Positions 28,647-35,599 of a stretch of 64,000 nt of DNA are shown here, piece after piece. The DNA is from Spirochaetota bacterium (GTDB lineage: Bacteria > Spirochaetota > UBA4802 > JAFGJZ01). The notes under the pieces were generated by a model that made no database searches, was not told the origin of the DNA, and saw only the letters and a program-made list of their open reading frames with translations. Numbering within the stretch: the stretch's first letter is position 1; the number at the start of each line of letters is the position of its first letter. The stretch lies in assembly GCA_035395685.1 (NCBI GenBank), contig DAOPBR010000007.1, positions 918 to 64,917 of the forward strand. The letters run 5' to 3'. The position numbers and the translations under genes are program-made.

Positions 28647-30084
28647 AAGCGGAATTGATCCTCATTTTAATTTTTTCAAAACCTATCAGTTTAAGCATCT
28701 CGGCAAGATCGGGTCCGTGAAGAACCGAAGTAAGCAAAGCCCTTACCGGCATAAAAAGATTCTTGCCTTTCAGACCGGTCTTTGCTTTTATCATATTGGT
28801 AATTTCTGTGAAATTATCAGAATTTATTTCATCCGAATCGATAAGCTCTTTCGCTGCAGTTAAAGCAGTTTTGCCTTCAGCAGAAGCAATCATAGCAGTA
28901 GCTTCTTCATCAGCAGTAGGAACATCTTCCGCGAATATAGGAAAAAGTTTCGCGATGTCGGAAAGAAGTTCACAGTTTCCTCTCACGGACGCAATGATTG
29001 TTTCAATATAATCTTCATCGAATTTAGAAAGATCGTATCCCGCTTTTTCAATAAACGGTTTGAAGAGCGAAGTAATTTTTTTGAGATCATAATTTCTTAT
29101 ATAAGCGGCATTCATCCATTTGAGTTTAACGAAATCAAAAACGGCACTCGATTTTCCAAGTCTGTCTATATCGATCTGACGGATGATTTCTTCAAGAGGA
29201 AGAATTTCTTCTCCGCTTTCACTCGACCAGCCGAGAACTGCAATATAGTTCATGAGAGCTTCAGGAAGATAGCCTTCCTGCTTGTAAAGATCCACTGAAG
29301 TGATTCCGTGACGCTTCGAAAGCTTCTTTTTGTCGGGACCGAGAACGAGCGGAAGATGCGCGTATTTCGGTGTCGGCATGTCCAAAGCGCGGGCAATCAT
29401 AACCTGCTTCGGAGTGTTAGGAAGATGATCCTCGCCTCTGATAACATGGCTTATTTCCATGAGAAGATCGTCGATAACGACTATGTAATTATAGATTGGA
29501 ACTCCGTCGCTTCTTACAATTATAAAATCTCCGCCGATATTGTCTGACTCAAATACGACTTTGCCTTTAATTCCGTCTTCTATTTCGATTTTTTCACCGT
29601 CATTGACTTTAAAACGGACTGTCGGCTTTCTGCCTTCTGCTTCATACTGCTTTTTCTTTTCTTCTGAAAGATTGAGACATGTGCGCTTATATGTGAAAGG
29701 AATACCCTTCGCTTCAGATTCGGCTCTCTCGGCATCGAGTTCTTCCTGAGAACAGTAGCAGTGATATGCTTTTTTTTCTGCAAGAAGCTTGTCTGTATAT
29801 TTCTGATATATTTCAAAACGCTCGCTCTGACGGTACGGACCATGACCTTTATCTATATCGGGTCCTTCTGTCCATTCAATGCCGAGCCATTTAAGATCGG
29901 CTATGATTGATTCTTCCGACTCTTTTGAACTGCGTTCCATGTCAGTATCTTCAACACGCAAAAGATATTCTGCGTTGTGTTTTTTCGCTATGATGTAGTT
30001 GATAATAGCTGTTCTCGCGTTTCCTATATGAAGAAAACCCGTCGGGCTTGGGGCAAATCTGACTCTCATTAAAACCTCGGTCAA
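28627..30084 (-). CDS. gltX: Glutamyl-tRNA synthetase
   Basis: HIGNARTA (HIGH) and KLSKR (KMSKS) motifs. 485 aa. Confidence 0.95.
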   Translation of the reverse strand: MTEVLMRVRFAPSPTGFLHIGNARTAIINYIIAKKHNAEYLLRVEDTDMERSSKESEESIIADLKWLGIEWTEGPDIDKGHGPYRQSERFEIYQKYTDKLLAEKKAYHCYCSQEELDAERAESEAKGIPFTYKRTCLNLSEEKKKQYEAEGRKPTVRFKVNDGEKIEIEDGIKGKVVFESDNIGGDFIIVRSDGVPIYNYIVVIDDLLMEISHVIRGEDHLPNTPKQVMIARALDMPTPKYAHLPLVLGPDKKKLSKRHGITSVDLYKQEGYLPEALMNYIAVLGWSSESGEEILPLEEIIRQIDIDRLGKSSAVFDFVKLKWMNAAYIRNYDLKKITSLFKPFIEKAGYDLSKFDEDYIETIIASVRGNCELLSDIAKLFPIFAEDVPTADEEATAMIASAEGKTALTAAKELIDSDEINSDNFTEITNMIKAKTGLKGKNLFMPVRALLTSVLHGPDLAEMLKLIGFEKIKMRINSAYEKNCV

Positions 30085-30314
30085 TAATTATATAGATTAA
30101 CGGAAGGACGCCCGGTTACTATTTCTGAAGAATCGCGTTTAATTCTGCCGACAAGCTTTTGAATCTTTTCAACAGTTTCATCGCTGAAAAGAACCTTACC
30201 GCACCTGGTGCATTTATAAGCCGGTATATTATCAAGAATAAAGCAGAAATTGTCTTCGCTGACACGGTAACTGCTTTTGCCTTCTGTTACCGCACCGCCG
30301 CAGCTGCATTCCAT
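30081..30314 (-). CDS. YgiT/MqsA-N-type zinc-finger protein
   Basis: CSCGG…(22)…CTRCG zinc-ribbon pattern. Start overlaps the gltX region. Confidence 0.5.
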   Translation of the reverse strand: MECSCGGAVTEGKSSYRVSEDNFCFILDNIPAYKCTRCGKVLFSDETVEKIQKLVGRIKRDSSEIVTGRPSVNLYNY

Positions 30315-30401: not shown

Positions 30402-31067
30402 TTATATCTTCACCGCAAGTCCGAATAAAACAGTAACTTCTCCGTAAAGAAGATCGATATCTCCGTTAACCGAATATAAACCGTTTAGACCCAAGTCGGC
30501 CGTGCAGTAAACACTTTCAGTAATAAAATATCTCGTACTTGCTGAAATTCCCAAACCAAAACAAAAATCGCTGTAACTGACTTTTTTTTCAGTTGAATAT
30601 GATGCCGTAAACTGGGGGCCGACGCAGAAATTGAAACCGCCGGATTTAAAAATCGAAACATATCCGCATCCGGTAACATTAAAATATTCCAAAACATTGT
30701 AAGTTTTATTCGAATAAGTAACTTCAGTAGAACCGTCAGGAAAATATTCCGTCCGTCTTTTCTTTTTTTCTATTTCGCCAAATCCAAAACCGGCAATTAA
30801 CCTGAAACTTTTACTATCAGGATTAGGATCAGTATCCACAAACAAACCAAAACGCAGTTTCTTATAACTTGAATGTTCATGCTTACTGAAATCATTATCC
30901 GGACCGAGAATTGGATCGCTTTGCTCTTCCTTATCGGTTGACCCTGCCGCACTTGAGCCCGCAATAAAACTGCCGATTCCAAAAGCAGAAAGTTCAGTAA
31001 ACGAAAAAGCAGCAAATAGACACAACAAAATTACAATCTTAATTCTTTTTTTAAGCACATCAATCAC
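30402..31067 (-). CDS. Hypothetical outer-membrane beta-barrel-like protein
   Basis: Signal peptide and alternating hydrophobic beta-strand pattern. Confidence 0.35.
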   Translation of the reverse strand: MIDVLKKRIKIVILLCLFAAFSFTELSAFGIGSFIAGSSAAGSTDKEEQSDPILGPDNDFSKHEHSSYKKLRFGLFVDTDPNPDSKSFRLIAGFGFGEIEKKKRRTEYFPDGSTEVTYSNKTYNVLEYFNVTGCGYVSIFKSGGFNFCVGPQFTASYSTEKKVSYSDFCFGLGISASTRYFITESVYCTADLGLNGLYSVNGDIDLLYGEVTVLFGLAVKI

Positions 31068-31321
31068 CCTTTCTTTTTTTTAATGTCATATTCTTATATC
31101 ATTATAAAACATTATAAGAGAGAAATTGTCGACCTGACTTCCAAGTCAAGACATGTTTAGCAATTTACAATAGATATAACTCCCATGCCGCAGCAATCGG
31201 AATACATTTTCATATTAATTATTTCATTTTCTGAATTTTTGATAATTTAATGAAAATAACGGCGAAAACAACGTATATATTATTGACACAGCCAATAATC
31301 AGGAATAGATTGAGGTGAAAA

Positions 31322-31915
31322 ATGAGCGTAGCAATGGAATTGACAAAAGAACAGCTCGAACAGATAGGTTCATACATTGAATCAAATTTTGACCGATTCA
31401 GCGCTAAAAGTAATATCGTTCAGCTTCGTCCCTATGACATTCAGCTAATTGAACGCATGACGCGCATCGAAGAAGAACTCAGAAGCCAGCGCGAATTATT
31501 TCTAAAACAGAATGAAACGATACAGTTCGGCTTCGTCCAGATGGATAAGCGTTTCGAACAAGTTGAGAAACGCTTCGAACAGGTTGACAAACGCTTCGAA
31601 CAGGTTGACAAACGCTTCGAACAGGTTGACAAACGCTTCGAAGCAATGCAGAAACAGATGGATGAACGGTTCTCTGCTGTTCAGAAACAAATGGACGAAC
31701 GTTTTACTGCAGTCGACAAGCGCTTCGAAATGATACAGAAAAACATGGACACCCGCTTTGAAGCTGTACAAAAACAAATGGATGTACGTTTTACAGCAGT
31801 AGACAAACGGTTTGACGACATGAGCAAAAAATTCACCATGATGATGTGGATGATGAGCGCAGGTTTCACAATCATCGCATCTGTTATAACACTTCTGACT
31901 ATATTCGCGAAATAG
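31322..31915 (+). CDS. Tail-anchored coiled-coil protein built from DKRFEQV heptad and QKQMDERFxAV 11-mer repeats
   Basis: Five tandem 21-nt repeats. C-terminal TM helix MMMWMMSAGFTIIASVITLLTIF. TTGACA-17-TAGATT promoter and GAGGTG ribosome-binding site upstream. Confidence 0.5.
   Translation: MSVAMELTKEQLEQIGSYIESNFDRFSAKSNIVQLRPYDIQLIERMTRIEEELRSQRELFLKQNETIQFGFVQMDKRFEQVEKRFEQVDKRFEQVDKRFEQVDKRFEAMQKQMDERFSAVQKQMDERFTAVDKRFEMIQKNMDTRFEAVQKQMDVRFTAVDKRFDDMSKKFTMMMWMMSAGFTIIASVITLLTIFAK
31544..31648 (+). repeat. 5 tandem copies of 21-bp unit GACAAACGCTTCGAACAGGTT (in-frame heptad DKRFEQV)
   Basis: Read directly from the sequence; three copies are identical and two are variant. Confidence 0.9.
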
Positions 31916-31924
31916 AAACAATTA

Positions 31925-33109
31925 ATGGATATCAACTTAAACCTTATCTTCGTTATCATATTTGCCGGCGGGTGGATTTTCTCGAAACTGTTTTCGAAAA
32001 TCAAACTTCCTGCAGTTCTCGGAATGGTCGTATTCGGCATTCTCTGTTCTGTTTTTATCAAAGACAATTCACCGGATATTCTCTGGGAGCTTTCACCGTT
32101 TTTAAAATCTTTCGCACTGATTGTAATTCTTTCACGTGCAGGACTCGGCATCAGCAAATCGGCTCTTAAAAAAGTCGGAAAAACCGCCATTCTCATGTCA
32201 TTCGTTCCGTGCATAATCGAAGGATCGGCACTCACTTTTCTTTTCCATATTCTTTTCGGTTTCAGTTACGAAGTCAGCGGACTTACAGGATTCATGCTTG
32301 CCGCCGTATCTCCAGCAGTCATCGTTCCTTCAATGCTGAACCTAAAGGAAAACGGCAGAGGCAAAAAAAACGATGTTCCAACTATTATTTTAGCAGGAGC
32401 TTCAATCGATGATGTTTTCGCGATAACCATTTTTTCAGTTTTTCTGGGGCTTTCACGCGGAACTTCTCCTGATATCATCAAAACAATAGTATCGGTGCCT
32501 TTATCAGTTACAGCAGGAATCGCCTCAGGAATCATATGCGGATTTCTCCTTTCATTATTTTTCAAAAAGTATCATTCATCCGTGCGGGCAACAGAGAAGG
32601 TTCTCATAGTGCTTATTTTCGCAACAGCCCTCGTACGTCTCGGTGATGCTCTCCATTTCGCAGCACTTCTGGGAGTCATGACCTGCGGTTTCATCATTCT
32701 CGAAATGCATGAAAAAATTGCGCATGAACTTTCTGCTAAATTATCCAAAATCTGGATCTTCGCAGAAATTATTCTATTCGTTCTCATCGGATTTTCTCTT
32801 GATATTGAAACCGCGTTCACGGCAGGACCCCAGTCTCTCATCGCGATAACTATCGGACTAATCTTCCGATCTATCGGAGTTTTCATCGCGACGGCGTTTT
32901 CTAATCTCACTATGAAAGAAAGAATCTTCTGTATGATCGCTTATATTCCGAAAGCTACCGTTCAGGCGGCACTCGGCGGTGTTGCTTTGAGTTACGGAAT
33001 CGAAGGCGGTGATACAATACTTTCAATTGCGGTAATTTCCATTCTTTTTACGGCACCTCTTGGACTGATCGGCATACGCACAACCGAAAAATATCTTCTG
33101 AAAAACTAA
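31925..33109 (+). CDS. Cation:proton antiporter-family membrane protein
   Basis: About 11 predicted TM helices. CPA-type N-terminus. Confidence 0.55.
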   Translation: MDINLNLIFVIIFAGGWIFSKLFSKIKLPAVLGMVVFGILCSVFIKDNSPDILWELSPFLKSFALIVILSRAGLGISKSALKKVGKTAILMSFVPCIIEGSALTFLFHILFGFSYEVSGLTGFMLAAVSPAVIVPSMLNLKENGRGKKNDVPTIILAGASIDDVFAITIFSVFLGLSRGTSPDIIKTIVSVPLSVTAGIASGIICGFLLSLFFKKYHSSVRATEKVLIVLIFATALVRLGDALHFAALLGVMTCGFIILEMHEKIAHELSAKLSKIWIFAEIILFVLIGFSLDIETAFTAGPQSLIAITIGLIFRSIGVFIATAFSNLTMKERIFCMIAYIPKATVQAALGGVALSYGIEGGDTILSIAVISILFTAPLGLIGIRTTEKYLLKN

Positions 33110-33160: not shown

Positions 33161-35599
33161 ATGTCAAAATTTTTAATTATCGGCGGCGTTGCCGGAGGAG
33201 CAACAACTGCGGCACGCCTCAGAAGAATCGATGAAGAAAGCGAAATTATAATTATTGAACGCGGAGATTACATTTCATACGCTAACTGCGGACTTCCCTA
33301 CTACATCGGCGGAACAATTGAAAAACGCGAATCGCTCTTCGTTCAGACTCCTGAATCGTTTTTCAAAAGATTCAATGTAGACGTCAGAATAAAATCAGAA
33401 GTCATATCAATAAACAGAGATAAGAAAACAGTCACAGTAAAGGAATCATCCGGAAAAACATACGAAGAAAATTATGACAAACTGGTTCTTTCTCCGGGAG
33501 CCGAACCCATAAAACCCATGATTGACGGAATTAATGATCCGGCAATCTTCACCTTGCGTAGTGTTCCCGACACAGATAAAATCAAAAAATACATAAATGA
33601 TAACAGGCCAACATCTGCAATTGTAATCGGAGGCGGCTTCATAGGTCTCGAAATGGCCGAAAATCTTCACGCACTCGGAATAAAAGTATCTATCGTCGAA
33701 ATGGCTGATCAGGTAATGACGCCTGTTGATTACGAAATCGCGGCATATGCCCATCATCACATCAAAACCAAAGGTGTAGATCTTTTTCTCGGCGACGGCA
33801 TAGCTTCATTTTCACGAAACGGAAATTCCGTTTCGGCAAGGCTCGCGAGCGGCAGAGAAATTGTTTCCGACATGATAATTCTTTCAATAGGAATAAAACC
33901 TGACACCGCATTTCTGCGGACTTCCGGCATTAATCTCAGCGATAGGGGCGCAATTATCGTTGATGAATTTCTGCGCACAAATGACGAAAATATTTATGCT
34001 GTCGGTGACGCAGTAATATTCACAAGTCCGGTAACGAATAAACCCCTGCCAGTATTTCTCGCAGGACCTGCGAACAAGCAGGGAAGAATCGCCGCTAACA
34101 ATATAGCGTTCGGAAATACGGAGAAATACAAAGGTTCGATTGCAACGGCAATAGCAAAAGTTTTTGATCTTACTATTGCTTCATGCGGTCTTTCTGAAAA
34201 ATTTCTAAATGCTCAATCTATCAAATGCAAAAGTTCAATAACAATCAGCGCTTCTCATGCGTCATATTACCCTGGCTCGACTACCATGACAATCAAGCTT
34301 GTTTTCGATCCTGACAACGGAAAAATCCTTGGAGCACAAATAACAGGCTATGATAATGTCGAATCAAAGATAAACATGATTGCGGCTGTGATGGGGATGA
34401 ACGGAACAGTCACCGATCTAAGAAACATTGAACATGCATACGCACCGCCTTATTCTTCAGCAAAAGACGCTGTGAACATCGCGGGCTTCACAGCAGAAAA
34501 TATAGTAAAAGGTGAAGTTCAAACTCTTTCATGGAATGATGTAAAAAGCATTTATCCTTCAGACTGGCAAATAATTGATGTAAGAACTCCGGCAGAATAC
34601 GAGCTCGGTTCGATTATGAATTCAATCAACATTCCGATTGATTCTCTCCGTTCAAGGATTGATGATGTCAGCAAGGACAAAAACATACTGCTTTACTGCG
34701 CGGTAGGATTGAGAGGATATGTTGCGCTTAGAATATTGAAAAACAAAGGATTCAAAAACGTTTATAATCTTTCAGGCGGATACAAGTTATATTCAACTGC
34801 ATCACAAAAGATCGAAGACGGAATAACCCAGGAATGGACAGGAAATGATTCAGGCGAAAAAACAAAAGACAATACCACTGCTGAAGGAAAATCTTTCACA
34901 GTTGATGCCTGCGGACTTCAGTGTCCGGGTCCTGTTATGCGGCTGAAATCAGAAATAGAGAAATTATCAAGCGGAGATATTTTAACAATAAGAGCAACAG
35001 ATGAAGGTTTCATGCGCGATGTCGGCGCATGGTGCCTGATGACAAAAAACACACTTCTTTCAGTAGATAATGAAAAAGGTATCGTCACTGCCCGCATACA
35101 AAAGGGAGCAAAATCTTCTATAAGCGGCAGTAGAGACAATAAAACAATTGTAGTTTTTTCTGATGATCTTGACAAGGCTATCGCCGCTTTTGTAATCGCA
35201 AACGGAGCAGCAAGCACAGGCAAGAAGGTGACCATATTTTTTACATTCTGGGGACTGAACGTTATCAAAAAACGCAAATCAAGATCCAAGAAAGATTTCT
35301 TCTCGAAAATGTTTTCATTCATGATGCCGAAGGGAAGCGGTGAACTCGATTTATCGAAGATGAACATGGCAGGCATGGGTCCGAAGATGATAAGATGGAG
35401 GATGAAGAAAAAAAACATTGATTCTCTCGAAGCAATGATTCAGTCTGCCCTCACGAACAATATTGAATTTATGGCATGTCAGATGTCAATGGATGTAATG
35501 GGAGTTAAAAGAGAAGACTTGATTGACGGAGTTACGATCGGCGGCGTAGCGGCATATCTCAACGAAACCGAGTCAAGCAGTCTCAATCTGTTCATATGA
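33161..35599 (+). CDS. Four-domain CoA-disulfide/persulfide reductase: FAD/NAD(P) oxidoreductase (CoADR-like) + rhodanese + TusA-like + DsrE/DsrF-like
   Basis: SYANCGLPY redox Cys; rhodanese active-site CAVGLRG; TusA CPGP motif (ACGLQCPGPVMRLK); C-terminal DsrE-like domain. Confidence 0.75.
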   Translation: MSKFLIIGGVAGGATTAARLRRIDEESEIIIIERGDYISYANCGLPYYIGGTIEKRESLFVQTPESFFKRFNVDVRIKSEVISINRDKKTVTVKESSGKTYEENYDKLVLSPGAEPIKPMIDGINDPAIFTLRSVPDTDKIKKYINDNRPTSAIVIGGGFIGLEMAENLHALGIKVSIVEMADQVMTPVDYEIAAYAHHHIKTKGVDLFLGDGIASFSRNGNSVSARLASGREIVSDMIILSIGIKPDTAFLRTSGINLSDRGAIIVDEFLRTNDENIYAVGDAVIFTSPVTNKPLPVFLAGPANKQGRIAANNIAFGNTEKYKGSIATAIAKVFDLTIASCGLSEKFLNAQSIKCKSSITISASHASYYPGSTTMTIKLVFDPDNGKILGAQITGYDNVESKINMIAAVMGMNGTVTDLRNIEHAYAPPYSSAKDAVNIAGFTAENIVKGEVQTLSWNDVKSIYPSDWQIIDVRTPAEYELGSIMNSINIPIDSLRSRIDDVSKDKNILLYCAVGLRGYVALRILKNKGFKNVYNLSGGYKLYSTASQKIEDGITQEWTGNDSGEKTKDNTTAEGKSFTVDACGLQCPGPVMRLKSEIEKLSSGDILTIRATDEGFMRDVGAWCLMTKNTLLSVDNEKGIVTARIQKGAKSSISGSRDNKTIVVFSDDLDKAIAAFVIANGAASTGKKVTIFFTFWGLNVIKKRKSRSKKDFFSKMFSFMMPKGSGELDLSKMNMAGMGPKMIRWRMKKKNIDSLEAMIQSALTNNIEFMACQMSMDVMGVKREDLIDGVTIGGVAAYLNETESSSLNLFI

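Follow-up and report, generated by a model that had tools for sequence, protein, structure and literature searches.

An unnamed family of bacterial tail-anchored coiled-coil proteins with a repeat-built stalk of variable length

What kind of protein is built to a large extent from tandem copies of the heptad DKRFEQV and ends in a membrane anchor, and what might such a protein do? This question is raised by a gene at positions 31322-31915 (plus strand) of a 64,000-nucleotide stretch of DNA from a Spirochaetota bacterium (assembly GCA_035395685.1, contig DAOPBR010000007.1), which is called the window throughout. A preliminary description, made from the sequence of the window alone, had drawn attention to the gene; its overall observation was confirmed, and its interpretation was borne out in part. 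The encoded protein belongs to an unnamed, widespread family of proteins in which a conserved head is carried by a stalk of 7- and 11-residue units on a C-terminal transmembrane (TM) anchor. The gene was divided into the following parts.

31322..31915, plus strand: coding sequence of the 197-residue tail-anchored coiled-coil protein (GenBank HOF32619.1, HOR43191.1 and HPK55582.1, all 'hypothetical protein')
31322..31543, plus strand: head, residues 1-74, as delimited with alignments A1 and A2, phmmer and the AlphaFold2 model
31544..31648, plus strand: five 21-bp units, four times (D/E)KRFEQV and once DKRFEAM, residues 75-109
31568..31642, plus strand: exactly 21-periodic run of 75 nt, 3.57 units of AAACGCTTCGAACAGGTTGAC, the site of the strain-level 21-bp indels
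31649..31834, plus strand: mixed 11-mer/7-mer part of the stalk, residues 110-171, as parsed from the F-to-F spacing
31835..31906, plus strand: C-terminal TM anchor TMMMWMMSAGFTIIASVITLLTIF, residues 172-195, from hydropathy and flank charges; near-invariant in close homologs

The open reading frame (ORF) starts with ATG, ends with TAG and encodes 197 amino acids. A reading as a spurious or non-coding ORF was ruled out by conservation, and the ORFs on the minus strand at 31502-31921 and 31681-32235 were put down to the repeat-rich frame, of which they are shadows. In an AlphaFold2 monomer model with a mean predicted local distance difference test score (pLDDT) of 76, a helix at residues 9-29 and a loop were followed by a single unbroken helix that extended from residue 37 to residue 196. 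The last part of the head is formed by the start of this long helix, which bears ERMTRIEEELRSQREL, an extra heptad FLKQNET, which is a subfamily-specific addition, and the QFGF junction. The anchor is trailed by just two residues, AK, before the stop codon. The long helix with a single C-terminal TM anchor that had been described at the outset was thus recovered. The protein has no N-terminal hydrophobic segment or signal peptide. For 77 family members, the median tail beyond the TM core was two residues, and the number of lysine and arginine residues was 3.6 in the 15 residues ahead of the TM segment versus 0.65 after it. Because a signal peptide is absent and K/R are in excess ahead of the TM segment, we infer from the positive-inside rule that the N-terminus is cytoplasmic.

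The stalk consists of units of only two lengths. The five 21-bp heptads and the 11-mers that the preliminary description had named were found, and the in-frame order of the heptads is DKRFEQV, EKRFEQV, DKRFEQV, DKRFEQV, DKRFEAM. Tandem Repeats Finder reported a period of 21 with 4.3 copies, 97% matches and a score of 166. The additional claim that three units are identical depends on the register: it holds in the register AAACGCTTCGAACAGGTTGAC (31568-31630), whereas just two units are identical when they are read as codons for D-K-R-F-E-Q-V, and the one before them deviates by 1 nt. Further towards the anchor, four 11-mers (QKQMDERFSAV, QKQMDERFTAV, QKNMDTRFEAV and QKQMDVRFTAV) are interleaved with 7-mers (DKRFEMI, DKRFDDM) up to residue 171, and the F-to-F spacing of the whole stalk reads 7777BB7BB77, with B standing for 11. 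With the exception of one parsing miss, the spacing in 113 parsed close homologs was either 7 (332 times) or 11 (261 times). The same rule applied across the wide family, with DKRFEQV as the consensus heptad across phyla (121 exact copies in 76 proteins). Core positions likewise recur at 7 or 11 residues, with F/V in heptads and M/F/V in hendecads, and the e/g-type positions are charged (D, K/R, E). A second copy of the gene was not found inside the window, and a literature text search yielded no mention of DKRFEQV or of the head motif VRVEEELK.

The number of heptads is not constant. The preliminary description had predicted a recent expansion with copy-number variability and had named a long-read comparison of repeat number across isolates as a check; across assemblies, the count proved not to be invariant, and alleles with five, four and three heptads exist. 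The exact 197-residue protein with five heptads is encoded on 13 contigs of ENA, JGI and NCBI assemblies from different samples, and three of these contigs match the window over 6.6 kb with 100% identity. Over 12,594 bp, the alignment of assembly GCA_029554345.1 (locus L001) with the window has 0 mismatches and one gap, which comprises a single 21-bp unit; the protein of this assembly has 190 residues and four heptads. Three heptads are present in three more distant contigs, one with an identity of 95-98% and two with about 90% (GCA_020047475.1 and the metagenome-assembled genome (MAG) OH_SDB_63). Because these relatives carry three heptads and a near-identical assembly carries four, the array appears to have grown very recently, from three to four to five units, in the lineage of the window. 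The array could be used as a strain marker in uncultured digester and sediment spirochaetes.

Next, the protein was compared with curated families. The whole protein matched no family above threshold in Pfam, NCBIfam, PHROGs, PADLOC or the PDB sequences, and the 74-residue head alone had no match in Pfam or PADLOC. The question whether there is a clear match to a characterised family, which had been raised before, was thus answered in the negative for the curated families tested. Sub-threshold matches in these scans (Exonuc_VII_L, Sec3_CC, SMC/Rad50, JetC, ZorA tails and tape-measure proteins) were rejected as generic coiled-coil noise, and others involved unannotated PHROGs and the repeat region only. 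The precomputed Pfam labels on homologs were a faint MJ0349 and FAM81B, the latter being coiled-coil noise. A full-length profile had only weak matches to PDB sequences, namely to designed coiled coils and to influenza HA2; a comparison of the head with the PDB sequences yielded nothing below an E value of 0.25, and Foldseek found no match of the monomer model in the PDB.

Searches of larger protein collections showed that the protein is not an orphan. More than 100 close homologs were found among 5.8 billion proteins, with lengths of 111-197 residues, the window protein being the longest. Nearly all of those with an organism name came from Spirochaetota MAGs, and head and anchor were near-invariant. 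When the head alone was used in a phmmer search of 1.84 billion cluster representatives, 42 clusters were retrieved. Apart from a 1173-residue repeat protein, the sequences inspected among these matches, some of them truncated or frameshifted, share one small design: a head LExIGxYh ... ERhVRVEEELKxQRELM..GF, DKRFEQV-type units and a C-terminal TM helix. The window protein has both the head motifs and a stalk with exclusively 7- and 11-residue spacing that leads into a TM segment with a two-residue tail. Residues E44, R45, R48, E50 and Q56 are invariant in alignments A2 and A3, and E51, E52 and R57 also in A3. A scan of one genome per species detected at least 439 loci, distributed over Spirochaetota, Chromatiales and Desulfobacterota. 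The best 80 loci listed belonged mostly to Spirochaetaceae and Leptospirales and otherwise to Chromatiales, including the cultured Halochromatium salexigens, Lamprobacter modestohalophilus, Rhabdochromatium marinum and Ectothiorhodospira shaposhnikovii, and to Desulfobacterota; several genomes had multiple loci, and tandem copies were present. Members are labelled 'hypothetical protein' in RefSeq, one is a 'DUF1640 domain-containing protein' in UniRef, and some carry misleading automatic labels (RmuC, CorA, TOPRIM nuclease).

Paralogs within one genome differ chiefly in the length of the stalk. The MAG of the window protein (locus tag PK624_00155) encodes at least three further paralogs of 158, 169 and 126 residues, and the distance from the QREL motif to the TM segment, which is about 117 residues here, ranges from 17 to 161 across the family. 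The heads of paralogs showed protein identities of 85-97%, whereas the identity at third codon positions was just 0.6-0.8. Because the heads are near-identical in protein while synonymous positions have diverged, the head is maintained by purifying selection, and the same divergence rules out gene conversion as the cause of the near-identical heads. Two neighbouring ORFs at other loci were observed in addition. The third gene of a tandem array at locus L019 (4366-4833, plus strand) has the matching stalk, with DKRFDDLIHYV 11-mers, and the matching anchor (QWTIGIGFTV..) together with a different, Pro/Ala-rich head, which suggests that heads are exchangeable modules on a stalk-anchor unit. In Halochromatium salexigens (L062, 3315-3755, minus strand), an ORF with N-terminal TDRKFQ(D/E) heptads lies beside three tandem family members; it represents another protein type with a nearly identical heptad, and its N-terminus may be a DUF3782-type coiled coil.

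How might such a protein work? We consider it reasonably probable that it is an oligomeric tether of head, stalk and anchor that faces the cytoplasm, and that its length is tuned by gain and loss of repeats. The single C-terminal TM helix with its two-residue tail would anchor the protein in the cytoplasmic membrane, and everything N-terminal of it would face the cytoplasm. From about residue 37 to the membrane, the chain would be one continuous helix, and such helices would assemble in parallel into a homo-oligomeric coiled coil that is nearly straight, as expected from the 7- or 11-residue recurrence of the core positions. A trimer would be the likeliest oligomeric state, judged only by analogy with CCDC90B and with trimeric coiled coils that have an F/V core, such as HA2; F at position 'a', V at position 'd' and the weak profile matches to the trimeric HA2 coiled coil are compatible with it. 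The membrane-distal conserved head of about 60-70 residues, which is under the strongest purifying selection, is the presumed binding surface, and the stalk would be a spacer of quantised length that fixes the distance between head and membrane. At about 0.15 nm per residue, the stalk would span some 17 nm in this protein and roughly 2.5-24 nm in the family as a whole. Slippage or unequal recombination that adds or removes 21- or 33-bp units in frame would change this span in steps of about 1.0 or 1.6 nm, each step corresponding to two or three helical turns, with the register of the coiled coil kept. In the long term, such changes would give rise to sets of paralogs in one genome that have a near-identical head and anchor and stalks of different length. 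From this arrangement, we infer a role as a membrane-tethered spacer or scaffold.

Several points weigh against this account. The AlphaFold2 model is monomeric and has low confidence in the head (pLDDT 54-73), and both the fold of the head and the oligomeric state are predictions. The cytoplasmic location of the N-terminus is derived from a sequence rule. Because the identical five-heptad allele is present on 13 contigs from different samples, the array does not seem to be hypermutable over short time scales, and the lone four-heptad assembly could reflect heterogeneity of the population or a choice made during assembly. Clustering of the neighbouring genes at 80 loci revealed no recurrent partner except tandem paralogs, and no lead on a ligand of the head came from a neighbour, a regulator or a solved structure. 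Finally, in profile comparisons (hhalign) with the bacterial DUF1640 proteins that are discussed below, the anchors alone reached a probability of 40% (E 3e-4) and the heads had no similarity (E 0.38); coiled-coil and TM segments inflate such profile scores.

Other explanations were weighed against the tether, and one of them arises from the gene that follows immediately downstream.

31925..33109, plus strand: Na+/H+ exchanger gene, 394 residues (Pfam Na_H_Exchanger, E 1e-43)

The protein might be a dedicated accessory subunit or a regulator of this Na+/H+ antiporter, encoded in the same operon. The antiporter ATG follows 9 nt past the stop codon of the coiled-coil gene, a terminator-like site was not found between them, and the antiporter gene has no obvious Shine-Dalgarno motif; co-transcription of the two genes is plausible here. 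The adjacency, which the preliminary description had pointed out correctly, is kept in relatives with about 90% identity. However, the genes are spaced by about 320-340 bp in these relatives, in L002 a HepT/MNT pair takes the place of the antiporter downstream of the syntenic ortholog, and the paralogs in the same and in other genomes have unrelated contexts, with no partner recurring over the 80 loci. The implied link to the antiporter is therefore not conserved in orthologs or paralogs, and we regard a dedicated antiporter subunit as most unlikely. We see equally little chance that the gene encodes an exported or surface-exposed variable antigen, or is a contingency locus, that serves to evade recognition by phages or hosts. 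Such a role would fit a multigene family and in-frame tandem repeats with strain-level changes in copy number, but the lack of a signal peptide and the flank charges favour a cytoplasmic N-terminus, the repeats are strongly conserved (DKRFEQV across phyla) rather than diversified, and the five-heptad allele is identical on all 13 contigs.

Two further explanations start from known proteins of similar shape. The preliminary description had seen an XhlA/holin-accessory-like architecture, and a lysis protein that aids the holin/endolysin pair of a prophage would indeed have the same minimal layout of a short coiled coil and a C-terminal TM helix. A distant family member, P0141, matched the whole 67-position Pfam XhlA model (E 3.9e-5, 24.2 bits), member P0131 matched DUF2951, another group of small prophage-encoded proteins with a coiled coil and a TM helix, over the full length with 23 bits, and a match to phrog_25947 'hol-like chemotaxis' (E 4e-5) was confined to the repeat region. 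However, both scores stay under the cut-offs of 34.7 bits (XhlA, PF10779) and 26.7 bits (DUF2951), XhlA was absent from the listed matches of the window protein (E above about 0.07), and it was not among the 25 families that were most often matched by 38 members at an E value of 1e-3. In addition, the gene has gltX, dus, ssb and rpe as neighbours and no holin, endolysin or phage gene nearby, the several paralogs of a genome each have a conserved promoter region of their own, and the conserved 60-70-residue head has no counterpart in XhlA. Membership in this family thus fails, as the best relative reaches 24.2 instead of 34.7 bits and lysis genes are lacking in the vicinity; the likeness to XhlA is an analogy of shape only, and a function in lysis is very improbable. 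Slightly less improbable, though still unlikely, is the view that the protein is the ortholog, in free-living spirochaetes, of the Borrelia Bdr family. Bdr proteins belong to the same phylum, they combine an N-terminal domain and a variable number of repeats with a C-terminal hydrophobic tail, and the number of their 11-residue repeats also varies among strains (PMC3303823) as well as among paralogs. A tblastn search of plasmids matched Borrelia genes, including one with the annotation 'Bdr family protein', at E values of 2e-6 to 4e-3; homologs from reptile-associated Borrelia follow the 7/11 grammar (DKQFDTV; EKNMDIKFGKM+DDQIDSL), and the hhalign comparison of the family profile with the protein of RT1S lp25 yielded 97.4% (E 1e-11). 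In contrast, a canonical B. afzelii Bdr had an E value of 0.41 against the family profile and a probability of 0.6% against the head profile A2. The window protein had no listed match to the Bdr_N models (NF040499 / NF040500) or to KID, and the B. afzelii control scored 91.6 bits on NF040499 Bdr_N_group1 and 73.5 bits on KID (PF02524). Furthermore, the family is not specific for spirochaetes, and the window gene is chromosomal and not part of a cp32-like element.

The differences from Bdr extend to the repeats and to the location of the genes. Canonical Bdr repeats are 11-mers of the type (T/S)KIDxVE, whereas the window family has DKRFEQV 7-mers, and Bdr genes reside on Borrelia plasmids and cp32 prophages, unlike the window gene. 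Common to both are the C-terminal hydrophobic anchor and the variable number of repeats, and the weak sequence matches to Bdr arise via repeats and anchor. Bdr proteins associate with the inner membrane and have no assigned function (PMC10016077). On plasmids of reptile-associated Borrelia, two 'hypothetical' proteins (L005 1474-2052, L006 1342-1854) are encoded beside genes for plasmid replication and maintenance; they contain DKQFDTV 7-mers and an 18-residue unit (11+7) and look intermediate between canonical Bdr and the DKRFEQV stalks.

The region upstream of the gene contains candidate expression signals.

31274..31283, plus strand: alternative -10-like box TATATATTAT, just 5' of TTGACA and overlapping it; TATAAT in most paralog loci
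31283..31311, plus strand: promoter-like TTGACA - 17 nt - TAGATT, consensus scan with 10/12 matches
31312..31317, plus strand: Shine-Dalgarno-like GAGGTG, 4 nt ahead of the ATG; GAGG kept in 12/13 paralog loci

In a scan of the single sequence, the promoter-like pair was unremarkable (5 sites versus 5.8 expected). In the upstream regions of 13 paralogs, TTGACA was invariant, TA(G/A)(A/T)TT followed at a distance of 17 nt (16 in two loci), and a ACGTATATATAA block was located immediately 5' of TTGACA. The complete arrangement ACGTATATATAA-TTGACA-N17-TAnnTT-GAGGTG-N4-ATG was kept at unrelated loci (window 31220-31321, L002, L003, L008-L017, L091 and L095). Because these elements are shared by the 13 paralog upstream regions, the expression signals were duplicated and conserved along with the gene. 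The geometry is ambiguous, since TAGATT ends 10 nt short of the ATG and abuts the Shine-Dalgarno motif. With a transcription start about 7 nt past TAGATT, GAGGTG would be outside of the transcript, the leader would be 3-5 nt long and the mRNA may be near-leaderless. Other clades of the family have a conserved TATACT/TATAGT box, followed by GAAGCA about 45-50 nt upstream of the ATG, at the position equivalent to that of the TATATATTAT box. TAGATT and the TATAAT-like TATATATTAT are therefore competing candidates for the -10 box. The consensus promoter that had been attributed to the gene is thus retained with regard to the TTGACA/TAnnTT elements at 13 paralog loci, but not with regard to an unequivocal -10 position.

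The genomic surroundings comprise housekeeping genes, and the gene is, to judge from them, chromosomal. Upstream, on the opposite strand, are gltX, a transglutaminase-like gene and dus, with ssb also nearby; downstream, the exchanger is followed by a fusion of Pyr_redox, rhodanese, TusA and DsrE domains, ACPS and rpe. A few details of this region were recorded. Gene calls for the antiporter in the window, L001 and L092-L094 disagree on 100% identical DNA, with 394 residues in GCA_035377685.1 versus, in other assemblies, a fragment of 166 residues plus a minus-strand ORF of 89 residues; the 394-residue call is the correct one because the Pfam match spans residues 13-379. The fusion gene (33161-35599, plus strand) encodes 812 residues in which a pyridine-nucleotide-disulphide oxidoreductase is joined to rhodanese, TusA and DsrE-like domains; this fusion of the sulfur-carrier type resembles CoA-disulfide reductase. 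On the minus strand, a 77-residue ORF (30081-30314) with two CxxC pairs is zinc-ribbon-like and has a 4-nt overlap with the start of gltX; it is syntenic in L001, L002 and L091 and has no Pfam match. A 221-residue ORF (30402-31067, minus strand), divergent from the coiled-coil gene, has a hydrophobic, signal-like segment at its N-terminus and matched nothing in Pfam. The close strains L001, L090 and L092-L094 have this ORF, but no gene was called at its position in L002 or L091.

Returning to the tether, a more far-reaching and rather unlikely possibility is that the family acts as a set of length-tunable 'molecular rulers'. The several paralogs of a genome would then hold one conserved cytoplasmic binding head away from the inner membrane, each at a fixed distance of its own, and slippage would adjust these distances in steps that preserve the register. 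If the length of the stalk matters, selection would act on the distance between head and membrane, and one could search directly for the partner that the head binds. Testable features are at hand: a head under strong purifying selection, a stalk strictly quantised in units of 7 and 11 residues, and a natural allelic and paralogous length series that includes a difference of one heptad between otherwise identical genomes. Bacterial tail-anchored proteins have been little studied, and the bacterial DUF1640, Bdr and XhlA-like proteins have no assigned molecular function. In practical terms the value is modest: once the family has a name and a model, hundreds of 'hypothetical proteins' and the members with misleading automatic labels could be annotated consistently.

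Lastly, the protein was compared with DUF1640, which the preliminary description had suggested as a possible family. This idea stood for stalk and anchor, which resemble those of bacterial DUF1640 proteins, and not for the head, which differs, with the Pfam model PF07798 remaining unmatched. PF07798, which has a gathering score of 33.5 bits, was absent both from the Pfam matches listed for the window protein and from the 25 families that the 38 scanned members hit most often at E 1e-3; a Xylella DUF1640 protein used as control scored 26.1 bits. The hhalign comparison of the family with a bacterial DUF1640 profile aligned the stalk-anchor junction with a probability of 96.9% (E 2e-10), whereas reversed and column-shuffled controls had E values of 0.1 or worse. 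Both groups have about 95-200 residues and lead from a head at the N-terminus through a helical stalk to a C-terminal TM anchor, and in both the stalk contains DxRFxxV-type units of 7 and 11 residues, with DQRFAQV and DKRFAEV(RGEL) in Xylella and Burkholderiaceae. The anchors are W-initiated (..LLKWMLGV.. versus ..MMMWMMSAGF..), the junction 'M..GF.Q.D.RF.QV' aligns, and several paralogs and length variants occur per species. In Xylella fastidiosa (L088 2827-3339; homologs P0161-P0233), a length series of 94-189 residues is built from DQRFAQV and EKNIDQRFAQV units. The best phage match of the window protein was a DUF1640 protein of Xylella phage Xfas53 (E 1e-9), which has DQRFAQV units and a tail anchor and is encoded between helicase and polymerase genes. 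In contrast, the DUF1640 head FDTLKF..AGV..AEAEAEA and the neck ATKxDL are absent from the window family (alignments A1, A2 and A3), which has LExIGxYV ... ERhVRVEEELKxQRELM in their place, and the Xylella genes are prophage-borne whereas the window gene lies among housekeeping genes. Judged by these alignments, the family and DUF1640 probably have the stalk-anchor module in common and differ in the head, so that the window protein appears as a head-swapped variant of the DUF1640 kind and not as a member of PF07798 as defined. The mitochondrial proteins MCUR1 and CCDC90B, which are eukaryotic DUF1640 members, are reportedly trimeric head-neck-stalk-anchor proteins. If the homology of stalk and anchor to DUF1640 is genuine, the family would comprise head-swapped bacterial cousins of MCUR1/CCDC90B and could reveal what this scaffold architecture originally did.

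Similar topologies and similar stalks are also known from other proteins. ElaB, YqjD and YgaM of E. coli (DUF883) have a small helical cytoplasmic domain and a C-terminal TM tether, and several paralogs exist per genome. The likeness is one of topology only, since DUF883 proteins are not known to have a stalk built from repeats, and DUF883 did not turn up in the Pfam matches listed for the window protein or the 38 members. Length-variable coiled-coil stalks as such are already known from DUF1640 and Bdr, and they are also found in trimeric adhesins. Compared with these systems, the window protein represents a previously unnamed, widespread variant of head-stalk-anchor coiled-coil proteins that is not XhlA, not Bdr and not tied to the antiporter.

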